5,018 nt of DNA from the IMG/VR virus record IMGVR_UViG_2634166492_000001, one strand, 5' to 3'. Made by a program: the position numbers and the translations under genes. The stretch comes from a virus. Taxonomy: Duplodnaviria; Heunggongvirae; Uroviricota; Caudoviricetes. Below the pieces are notes generated by a model, which made no database searches, was not told the origin of the DNA, and saw nothing but the letters and a program-made list of their open reading frames with translations. Shown here piece after piece: positions 1 to 1,376 of this stretch (positions within the stretch are counted from its first letter, which is position 1; each line of letters begins with the position of its first letter).

Positions 1-37
1 AAGATAGGGTCCGCAGGATGCTCAGGGCCGTGTCTCT

Positions 38-73
38 TGAAGTGGTCAACAAAAACTGGCCACCGAGTTAGAG
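38..73. repeat. IS911-like right terminal inverted repeat (IRR); inner boundary approximate
   Basis: Plus strand TGAAGTGGTCAACAAAAACTGGCCACC pairs with the reverse complement of the other end; the orfB stop (TGA at 46..48) lies inside it, as is usual in IS3-family elements. Confidence 0.75.
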
Positions 74-966
74 TTTTTCCAGTATCGATTTTCCGATTCG
101 TTTGGGGGTAACCCACCGTTATATTCGTGCGGTCTTAGTGCGCTGTAATATCCAACGATATAGTCCGTTATGGCGTGAGCTGCCTCGCTGAAGCTTACGT
201 AACCCACCACCGGCATCCATTCGTTCTTCAGACTCCTGAAGAAGCGTTCCATTGGGCTGTTATCCCAGCAGTTTCCGCGCCGGCTCATACTCTGTCTGAT
301 CTGGTATCGCCACAATAACTGCCGGAACTGCCTGCTCGTATAATGACTGCCCTGATCGCTGTGGAACATCACCCCGCCGGGCTTACCACGGGTTTCCCAT
401 GCCATTTCCAGCGCTTTCATGGTGAGCCTGCTGTCCGGCGAGAACGACATGGCCCAGCCCACTGGTTTTCTTGCGAACAGGTCGAGAACAACGGCGAGGT
501 ACGCCCAGCGCTTACCCGTCCAGATATAGGTCACATCACCGCACCACACCTGATTTGGCTCGGTCACGGCGAACTGCCTTTCAAGGTAGTTAGGGATAGC
601 AACATGTTCATGACCACCACGTTTATACCGGTGAGTCGGCTGCTGACAGCTGACCAGCCCCAGCTCTTTCATGAGCCTGCCAGCAAGCCAGCGTCCCATC
701 TGGTAGCCTCTCCGGGTTGCCATTGTGGCGATGCTTCTTGCTCCGGCCGAACCGTGGCTGATGCCATGTAGCTCAAGTACCTGACTGCGTAATACAGCCC
801 GTCTGCCGTCTGGTTTTTCAGGACGGTTTTTCCAGTATCTGTAGCTGCTGCGATGAACCCCGAACACATGGCAGAGTGTGACCACAGGATAATGCGCTCT
901 GAGTTTCCCGATTATCGAGAACTGTTCAGGGAGTCTGACATCAAGAGCGCGGTAGCCTTTTTTAAT
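46..966 (-). CDS. IS911-type OrfB (DDE transposase catalytic domain); normally expressed as an OrfAB fusion by -1 frameshifting
   Basis: Frame is open from the ATT at 966..964 to TGA at 48..46 and is -1 relative to orfA; the track shows the GTG-initiated part 46..885 (279 aa). DDE-type motifs are present ([24 protein letters not shown]). The in-frame ATT directly upstream of the slippery heptamer fits the AUU-initiated OrfB described for IS911. Confidence 0.85.
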
Positions 967-1214
967 ATTTCATTCTCCATTTCAATGCGTTGTAGCTTTT
1001 TCCTGAGCTCACGGATTTCAATTTGTTCCGGGGTAATGGGGGAGGCTTTTGGTGTTTTGCCCTGACGCTCATCACGCAGTTGTTTGACCCATCTTGTCAT
1101 TGTGGAAAGGCCAACATCCATAGCTTTGGCGGCATCTGCCACCGTGTATTTCTGGTCAACAACCAGTTGAGCGGATTCGCGTTTAAACTCTGCGCTAAAA
1201 TTTCTTTTTTTCAT
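912..1214 (-). CDS. IS911-type OrfA (helix-turn-helix transposase regulatory subunit, 100 aa)
   Basis: ATG at 1214..1212 is preceded by an AGGTG Shine-Dalgarno on the minus strand; stop TAA at 914..912. The track ORF 912..1250 has an N-terminal extension that runs into the IRL and is less likely. Leucine-heptad C-terminus ([23 protein letters not shown]) is typical of IS3-family OrfA. Confidence 0.9.
957..963 (-). other. Programmed -1 ribosomal frameshift heptamer A AAA AAG linking orfA to orfB
   Basis: Minus strand reads ATGGAGAATGAAATATTAAAAAAGGCTACC: heptamer A-AAA-AAG in the orfA frame (L-K-K), with a GGAG Shine-Dalgarno-like element about 11 nt upstream, as recalled for IS911 recoding. 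Confidence 0.8.
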
Positions 1215-1250
1215 TGGAGCACCTGTGTTGTTCTGAGGTGAGCATATCAC

Positions 1251-1286
1251 CTCTGTTCAGGTGGCCAAATTCAGTGTGCCACTTCA
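1251..1286. repeat. IS911-like left terminal inverted repeat (IRL); inner boundary approximate
   Basis: Minus strand reads TGAAGTGGCACACTGAATTTGGCCACC from 1286 inward, matching the IRR at the 8 terminal bases and at the TGGCCACC block. Confidence 0.75.
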
Positions 1287-1376
1287 TTTCTTGCCTCAAA
1301 TGGCAGTACGTTAACTATTCAGTCAAATGGTGCGGCGTTTACTGCCACAACCATCAAGATAATCGCGGAGCAGTGA
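1287..1376 (+). pseudogene. 3'-terminal 29 codons of an ORF interrupted by the IS (possibly the tail-needle gp26-position gene by P22 synteny)
   Basis: Frame is open from the first base after the IS end (FLASNGSTLTIQSNGAAFTATTIKIIAEQ) to TGA at 1374..1376, which overlaps the next gene's ATG (TGATG), a typical coupled junction. Identity of the gene is inferred from position only. Confidence 0.4.

Follow-up and report, generated by a model that had tools for sequence, protein, structure and literature searches.

Why does an apparently intact copy of the insertion sequence (IS) IS911 stand between two different base triplets, when an insertion of this element would be expected to leave the same 3 bp on both sides? 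The copy lies in a stretch of 5,018 bp (the window) that constitutes the complete contig AMWM01000449.1 of the draft assembly GCA_000826695.1. A preliminary description of the window reported TCT (35-37) and TTT (1287-1289) at the edges of the element, and offered two explanations for the mismatch: mutation after insertion, or flanks that were not originally contiguous. Our own reading of the sequence and a repeat finder both confirmed the mismatch, so that an identical 3-bp direct repeat is absent (TCT versus TTT). We found two independent empty sites, one per flank, each containing its IS-adjacent triplet once: TCT in a chromosomal island of Shigella flexneri located between remnants of ynfE and ynfF, and TTT in an Sf6-like prophage, where it is codon 254 of the tail-needle gene. 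Judged from these comparisons, the flanks were almost certainly not contiguous originally, whether the join between them is physical or was made during assembly. On the same evidence, TCT and TTT are halves of two different IS911 target sites, and they are unmatched because each flank carries half of a different target.

By every sequence criterion that we applied, positions 38 to 1286 are IS911, the sole test that failed being that for a simple insertion. IS911 transposes by a copy-out/paste-in mechanism, and its prototype comes from Shigella dysenteriae. The window element is 99.0 to 99.1% identical, over 33/38-1286, to Escherichia coli copies annotated as "IS3-like element IS911 family transposase." Its tips read 5'-TG...CA-3', and its left and right inverted repeat arms (IRL and IRR) are imperfect inverted repeats of each other (TGAAGTGG...CCACTTCA). 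Pfam domains HTH_Tnp_1, rve, and rve_3 were called on the IS911 proteins; against NCBIfam model NF033516 (IS3 transposase; cutoff, 160 bits), orfB scored 302 bits, whereas orfA gave a weak match of 56 bits, below the cutoff. With approximately 99% nucleotide identity, an orfA/orfB pair with an A6G motif, an rve (DDE) domain, and imperfect TG...CA inverted repeats, the window copy matches IS911, and it differs from copies bordered by TTC, CTC, or a reconstructed CTT in having no 3-bp direct repeat. Its left edge reads ...GGCCGTGTC TCT/TGAAGTGGTCAAC..., and its right edge reads ...GTGTGCCACTTCA/TTT CTTGCCTCAAATGG (here and below, slashes mark the edge of an IS or the corresponding point in an empty site). 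Some match to IS911 DNA was present in 4957 of the 5426 complete E. coli genomes.

The left flank was traced to the chromosome. The 37-mer ahead of the element occurs, exact and IS-free, in 14 S. flexneri loci, comprising L025-L027, L034, and ten further loci that include the complete genomes CP054892.1 and CP026098.1 (L numbers are our handles for the loci compared). In the S. flexneri island, the 37-mer sits inside an 84-codon open reading frame (ORF) and continues as ...GTGTC TCT CAATGAAAC...; in L025-L027 and L034, the empty site reads ...GTGTCTCT/CAATGAAACATATGG. These island contigs were reached via a neighboring protein of the E. coli island, in which the counterpart of the 37-mer lies in an unannotated 86-codon ORF. 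Among the E. coli genomes, window 1-37 was matched in only 7 of 5426, at 89 to 92% identity, in an integrase-bearing island that splits ynfE. A search of 50,697 phage records and 72,556 plasmids gave no significant match to window 1-37, and the sequence is unlike that found upstream of TTT in the needle gene. The suspicion that the leftmost 37 bp are not the original upstream sequence of the prophage was therefore borne out by the exact 37-mer in the ynfE/F island.

The right flank belongs to a phage. Window sequence from 1287 onward aligns collinearly with phage Sf6, starting at Sf6 position 9013 within gene 9 (8254-9102), at 97.2% identity, and it matches many E. coli prophages at 97 to 98%. 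Gene 9 of Sf6 encodes the analogue of P22 gp26. The IS abuts codon 254 of a needle gene of 282 codons, whose empty site is GACGGC TTT CTTGCC. The site is uninterrupted in Sf6 (...GTGGATAAAGACGGC TTT CTTGCCACAAATGG) and in the intact Sf6-like prophages L013 and L018, where it reads ...GATAAAGACGGC TTT CTTGCCTCAAATGG and is the same as the window to the right of the IS. Both of these prophages also encode a DUF2824 protein identical to that of the window.

Had IS911 simply inserted into one site and one copy of its 3-bp duplication later changed by a point mutation, an IS-free relative should show the two flanks meeting across a single TYT triplet. The comparison with an IS-free P22-like prophage that the preliminary description had suggested was run, and intact Sf6-like prophages do not join 1..37 to 1287. 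Instead, the left flank continues into CAATGAAAC in the 14 island loci, GATAAAGACGGC stands ahead of the right flank in Sf6, L013, and L018, and contiguity of 1..37 with the needle sequence from 1287 onward was found in no genome or phage searched. It is true that the triplets agree at two of three positions, as a mutated duplication would predict. Unrelated triplets differ in 63 of 64 cases, however, and agree at two or more positions in about 16% of cases, and since this chance probability is ∼0.16 the resemblance between TCT and TTT carries no weight. With IS-free versions of the two flanks that are unrelated loci (a chromosomal island and a decayed Sf6-like prophage), each with its own empty site, we rejected the point-mutated duplication, which we regard as extremely improbable, and the alternative of originally separate flanks was supported.

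The rule that IS911 leaves a 3-bp repeat held wherever it could be tested: TTC stands on both sides of the element in an E. coli prophage (L003), CTC on both sides in a plasmid (L038), and CTT on both sides of the reconstructed integrase site described below. In a small survey of other IS911 insertion sites or configurations, matching triplets were present at only two of eight; L035, L036, L037, L041, and the Shigella copies were without them. Copies of IS911 that lack a matching duplication are common, because most of the surveyed sites had unmatched triplets. In the literature, missing target duplications are explained by IS-IS recombination and by adjacent deletion (PMC11708052). The L003 element (3001-4249, E. 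coli 90-1) is an independent IS911 in an Sf6-like prophage with a perfect TTC duplication. The insertion is at the 3' end of the gp10-like gene, whose annotated coding sequence extends 34 nt into the IS, and the needle gene begins a short distance downstream.

Relatives that share the needle-side junction were found by looking up the DUF2824 protein of the window and comparing junctions. The boundary between IRL and TTTCTTGCC (...CCACTTCA/TTTCTTGCC) is also present in complete or long assemblies of S. flexneri, CP054892.1 and JAUTDC01 (L012, L017). In both, IS911 has the same orientation as in the window; a single base distinguishes it from the window copy (window 142, G versus A), and the 3.1 kb that follow on the right contain 3 to 4 differences. 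The left neighbor in these assemblies is a 5'-truncated prophage integrase gene beside proA (...CCACGCTT/IRR, with the edge ...CTCCACG CTT/IRR). A complementary integrase flank of IS911, IRL/CTT CTGCTTTCAG, occurs in CP032513.1 (L016). Joining the flanks at L012 8660-8662 and L016 781-783 with one CTT gave a continuous integrase frame, and the reconstructed 117-nt site was identical (117/117, 100%) to the IS-free integrase genes of HK75, HK446, and mEpX2. The integrase flanks rejoin perfectly with a single CTT, and therefore IS911 inserted there with a CTT duplication.

The history of the prophage side begins with this event, in which IS911 entered an Sf6-like prophage of S. flexneri at thrW-proA, within the integrase gene, and duplicated CTT. 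In a second step, the outcome of which is visible in the relatives, the integrase IS911 became joined, via an intact IS911, to the needle TTT in one S. flexneri lineage; the mechanism would have been either recombination with another IS911 copy located in the needle gene or an IS911 adjacent deletion. The excision, early, lysis, and head genes were lost in this step, leaving a cryptic remnant that keeps the ejection-protein genes, the tailspike gene, and the gtr genes; the block from DUF2560 to the needle alone measures 9.4 kb in L013. The CTT/TTT IS911 of the CP054892.1 type is a real hybrid-flank copy in finished genomes, and the needle-side junction is old. The IS and right side of the window are a derivative of a cryptic prophage remnant of this type. 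The remnant corresponds to the known cryptic gtr-bearing prophage at proA in S. flexneri (PMC4924310). As in the serotype-converting prophages with gtr clusters at proA-thrW, the remnant of the relatives lies beside proA, with the integrase on the thrW side and the tailspike and gtr genes on the far side, and in related genomes it is IS-riddled and defective (PMC4924310). The window contig differs in containing neither proA nor gtr genes and in having 37 bp from ynfE/F at its left.

The same needle position is also occupied by an inverted IS911. In CP032513.1, AKMX01, and AFGW01 (L016, L014, L019; 9911/9912), an inverted copy is attached through its IRR end to the same phosphodiester before TTTCTTGCC, whereas in the window (1286/1287) and CP054892.1 the needle-side junction, /TTTCTTGCCTCAAATGG, is on the IRL end. 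The left flank of the inverted element is a truncated DUF2560 gene (...CACTGA/IRL), and the empty site, with TGA present once, was found in L013 and L015. Phage DNA to the right of the inverted copy differs from the CP054892.1-type remnant by at most 1 base in 1.3 kb, and within the inverted IS itself, IS positions 968-1004 hold a patch of nine variant bases. When IS copies recombine homologously, each flank always stays on the IS end that it had before. Because recombination cannot interconvert the IRL- and IRR-joined forms, two transposase-level events at one nucleotide position are implied. It is conceivable, though on balance unlikely, that TTT at needle codon 254 is a true IS911 hot spot (GGC TTT CTT GCC) or a site at which IS911 flips in place; otherwise the two events would point to a process so far undescribed. 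Neither orientation of the IS911/needle junction occurred in any complete E. coli genome searched. A hot spot shared with E. coli was not upheld; an apparent 16-nt match extension into the flank of ISEc52 proved to be a chance similarity. Insertion targeted to an IS911 end has been reported to give head-to-tail IRL-IRR junctions (PMC9333248); we set this route aside for the inverted copy, given that the reported products are head-to-tail and not inverted (PMC9333248).

If the needle-side junction is old, how did 37 bp of the ynfE/F island come to lie on the other side of the element? The reading that we favor, with a probability of roughly 0.55, combines the two-site origin with an assembly path through a collapsed IS911. 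A strain-specific IS911 end would most likely abut TCT in the ynfE/F island of the strain from which the window derives, and the draft assembler would have threaded the collapsed, near-identical IS911 from the prophage contig into 37 bp of the other copy's flank. The physical left neighbor of the needle-junction IS911 would then probably still be the integrase fragment with its CTT. The triplets are unmatched under this reading too, because the true neighbor would be the integrase CTT opposite TTT. The contig crosses a multicopy IS911 of 1.25 kb and stops 37 bp beyond it, in a draft of at least 449 contigs, and its start does not fall at a known repeat boundary. A boundary shared with a divergent second version of the island in S. 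flexneri (L022-L024) was tested as the left end of the contig and ruled out, since the sequence left of the 37-mer has no homologue there. A 73-codon gene adjoins the island site on the left, and in relatives no IS911 was seen closer on that side than 840 bp (L041).

The positions of the two loci bear on the principal competitor of the assembly path, a physical join. In this scenario, which we consider possible and somewhat less probable, a new IS911 at the TCT of ynfE/F was followed by an exchange with the needle-junction copy that swapped the integrase flank for the island flank; possible routes are homologous recombination on a backbone in which the loci are inverted relative to each other, or translocation of the IS911-bounded prophage remnant. 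On CP054892.1, where the prophage IS911 occupies 97,663-98,911, the island site falls at 3,343,854/855, and IS911 copies at the two places, in the polarity of the window, would be direct repeats. The two loci are oriented in this way in the K-12 gene order as well. Because the copies would be direct repeats, the join in the window would be the junction of a 3.25-Mb deletion or the join of a 1.35-Mb circle or duplication. The 3.25-Mb deletion or 1.35-Mb circle join is not a viable one-step product. With loci 1.35/3.25 Mb apart, in direct repeat both on CP054892.1 and in the K-12 order, one reciprocal exchange would split the chromosome or delete 3.25 Mb. A draft contig that crosses a multicopy IS911 and ends 37 bp on, away from any known repeat boundary, is also weak evidence that the loci are linked.

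Other observations are consistent with a physical join. The island/IRR junction is unique to the strain, as the product of a rearrangement must be, and hybrid-flank copies of IS911 are real in relatives (CTT/TTT in CP054892.1, TGA/TTT in CP032513.1, and CAG/CTT in L041). Recombination between IS copies and adjacent deletion are, in addition, the usual causes of missing duplications (PMC11708052). The base difference at window 142 lies 105 nt from the IRR end and is compatible with a crossover to its right. As a crossover marker this base was found to be uninformative, for the same position varies at another IS911 locus (A in L022, G in L023).

Several considerations weigh directly against the assembly path. 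Among the assemblies and collections searched, none apart from the window contig had the island/IRR junction, and the 14 relatives have an unoccupied site; exact-pattern scans for the left flank and the island/IS911 junction likewise gave no hit in species-representative genomes, viral contigs, or metagenomes. This junction must exist in the reads, because no shared k-mer could create it, and a random exit of the assembler from IS911 would rarely pick one strain-specific flank, which favors a physical link. Contigs that truly span a hybrid-flank IS911 do exist in S. flexneri assemblies (L012, L014, L016, L019, L041), and the backbone of the window strain could differ from that of CP054892.1. 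The assembly verdict is drawn from the contig and its relatives. Short-read relatives break at IS911 and do not discriminate between the two models, since both predict the same four half-junctions. We found no mention of the assembly accession GCA_000826695.1 in the literature.

A single transposase-linked event without a duplication could also have placed the two flanks together, as an outward adjacent deletion from the needle copy or as an IS at the join of a 1.35-Mb tandem duplication. Deletions and duplications centered on an IS and lacking target duplications are documented (PMC11708052). A duplication join would be expected to leave both an empty island site and an island/IS911 junction in the reads, and a graph-based contig could then start with an island stub the size of a k-mer. 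A 1.35-Mb duplication would be unstable, however, and a 3.25-Mb adjacent deletion lethal; nothing in the sequence requires either event. We therefore regard this as very improbable.

A close parallel is offered by IS copies lacking duplications in the E. coli long-term evolution experiment (Ngan et al. 2024, PMC11708052). There, too, an intact IS is bordered by flanks from different places, with one half-site each, and the deleted material is prophage DNA between two IS target sites. The window differs in that one of its two exchanges, that of the 37 bp, is inseparable from the assembly path, and in that the implied distance is one of megabases, not kilobases (PMC11708052).

Mismatched flanks such as these are an ordinary result of IS-driven rearrangement, and part of the present case may be an assembly join. 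It is well known that IS copies can have flanks from two loci, that serotype-converting prophages of S. flexneri decay through IS activity, and that repeats induce joins in drafts. The window illustrates this decay, in which successive IS911 events and a microhomology deletion (described below) remove genes for replication, lysis, and the head but spare the tailspike/gtr end. In practical terms, the first 37 bp of the contig should serve neither for locating the prophage remnant on the chromosome nor as evidence of a gene fusion, and joins that span an IS in fragmented Shigella drafts need support at the level of reads. If the join is physical, it would represent a megabase-scale rearrangement bounded by IS911 in one lineage, useful as a strain marker and not new in kind.

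The ynfE-splitting, integrase-bearing island to which the left flank belongs, possibly a satellite or a prophage remnant, is present in some E. coli, Enterobacter, and S. flexneri (L004 3997-10212, L005, L031, L039 10001-12869); the S. flexneri version is without the integrase side. It encodes a Rha/anti-repressor-like protein, several small ORFs, and proteins of 163 to 169 and 329 amino acids (aa). The latter two had no PHROG match, and a weak Pfam match, to DUF6971, was obtained for the 163- to 169-aa protein alone. The look-up of protein P0113 led to an unrelated copy of the island family beside type III secretion genes in E. coli. Another IS911 (L041 11137-12385), 840 bp from the island site, interrupts a 169-codon gene and is flanked by CAG and CTT; on its far side lies a different chromosomal region, with a Dam-like gene and methyltransferase genes. 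Several S. flexneri drafts (L025-27, L047-48) end at ...GCAGAGTGGCAG because of an IS911 as in L041.

To the right of the element, the window preserves the module of the Sf6-like phages (Lederbergvirus), needle-DUF2824-gp7-gp20-gp16-tailspike, in synteny and with high identity (Table 1). The order is that of Sf6 genes 9-14 (the gp26-gp14-gp7-gp20-gp16-gp9 module of P22), with 97% nucleotide identity over the part compared, window 1287-2600, which begins at Sf6 9013, takes in the DUF2824 and gp7-like genes, and ends early in the gp20-like gene. At the position of the needle tail, a Phage_tail_NK remnant of 27 to 28 aa was called in L020 and L021. The window departs from Sf6 in that its needle gene is cut at codon 254 and its gp16 homologue is fused to a 5'-truncated tailspike gene by a 2.6-kb deletion.

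TABLE 1 Features of the 5,018-bp window and the basis on which each was assigned
Feature	Position	Strand	Basis
Left flank, fragment of a small ORF (84-86 codons) in the island between ynfE and ynfF remnants	1..37	-	Exact matches
TCT, half-site beside IRR	35..37		Present once in the empty ynfE/F island site
IS911 (IS3 family), 1249 bp, apparently intact	38..1286	-	Repeat finder, reading, identity, domains
IRR arm	38-64		Repeat finder
orfB frame, open	46-885	-	ORF listing
orfA, open	912-1214	-	ORF listing
A6G (A AAA AAG) slippery site, -1 frameshift	957-963		Read from sequence
IRL arm	1260-1286		Repeat finder
TTT, half-site beside IRL; codon 254 (Phe) of the tail-needle gene	1287..1289		Present once in intact prophages
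End of Sf6-type tail-needle knob gene (Sf6 gene 9), last 29 codons and stop	1287..1376	+	97% identity to Sf6
DUF2824 gene (gp14-like)	1376..1831	+	ORF and domain calls
gp7-like ejection-protein gene	1834-2526	+	ORF and domain calls (PF25688, PF16928 for the gp7/gp20 pair)
gp20-like ejection-protein gene	2536-3867	+	ORF and domain calls (PF25688, PF16928 for the gp7/gp20 pair)
Truncated gp16-like gene, lytic transglycosylase domain, 201 aa	3868..4473	+	Domain calls, comparison
GTCAGCA, 7-bp microhomology at deletion junction	4430..4436		Comparison with L017 (13055-13061, 15655-15661) and L020
Tailspike gene, 5'-truncated, head-binding domain onward, runs off contig end	4436..5018	+	Domain calls, comparison

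Compared with L017 and L020, the window is missing 2600 bp between the gp16-like and tailspike genes. The mnt/arc gene was lost, together with the remainder of the gp16-like gene and ∼10 codons from the start of the tailspike gene. As a result, the transglycosylase fragment is 201 aa long, and the tailspike gene now has its start at an ATG at 4436. Exactly this 201-aa protein was found only in the window contig and in five Logan assemblies (ERR6005117, ERR6004925, ERR6004928, ERR6004689, and ERR6004691), which together define the lineage. The contig ends at 5018 inside the tailspike gene, where the relatives L007-9, L017, and L020-21 continue with neither a repeat nor an IS; a strain-specific insertion and low coverage are both possibilities for this break. 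Within the gp20-like gene, window position 2974 is the point at which the intact Sf6-like prophages L013 and L018 diverge from the window. Three Logan contigs of lineage mates start exactly at window 2944, that is, 30 nt (k-1, k=31) before 2974, which suggests that those strains carry a second, related Sf6-like prophage or remnant.

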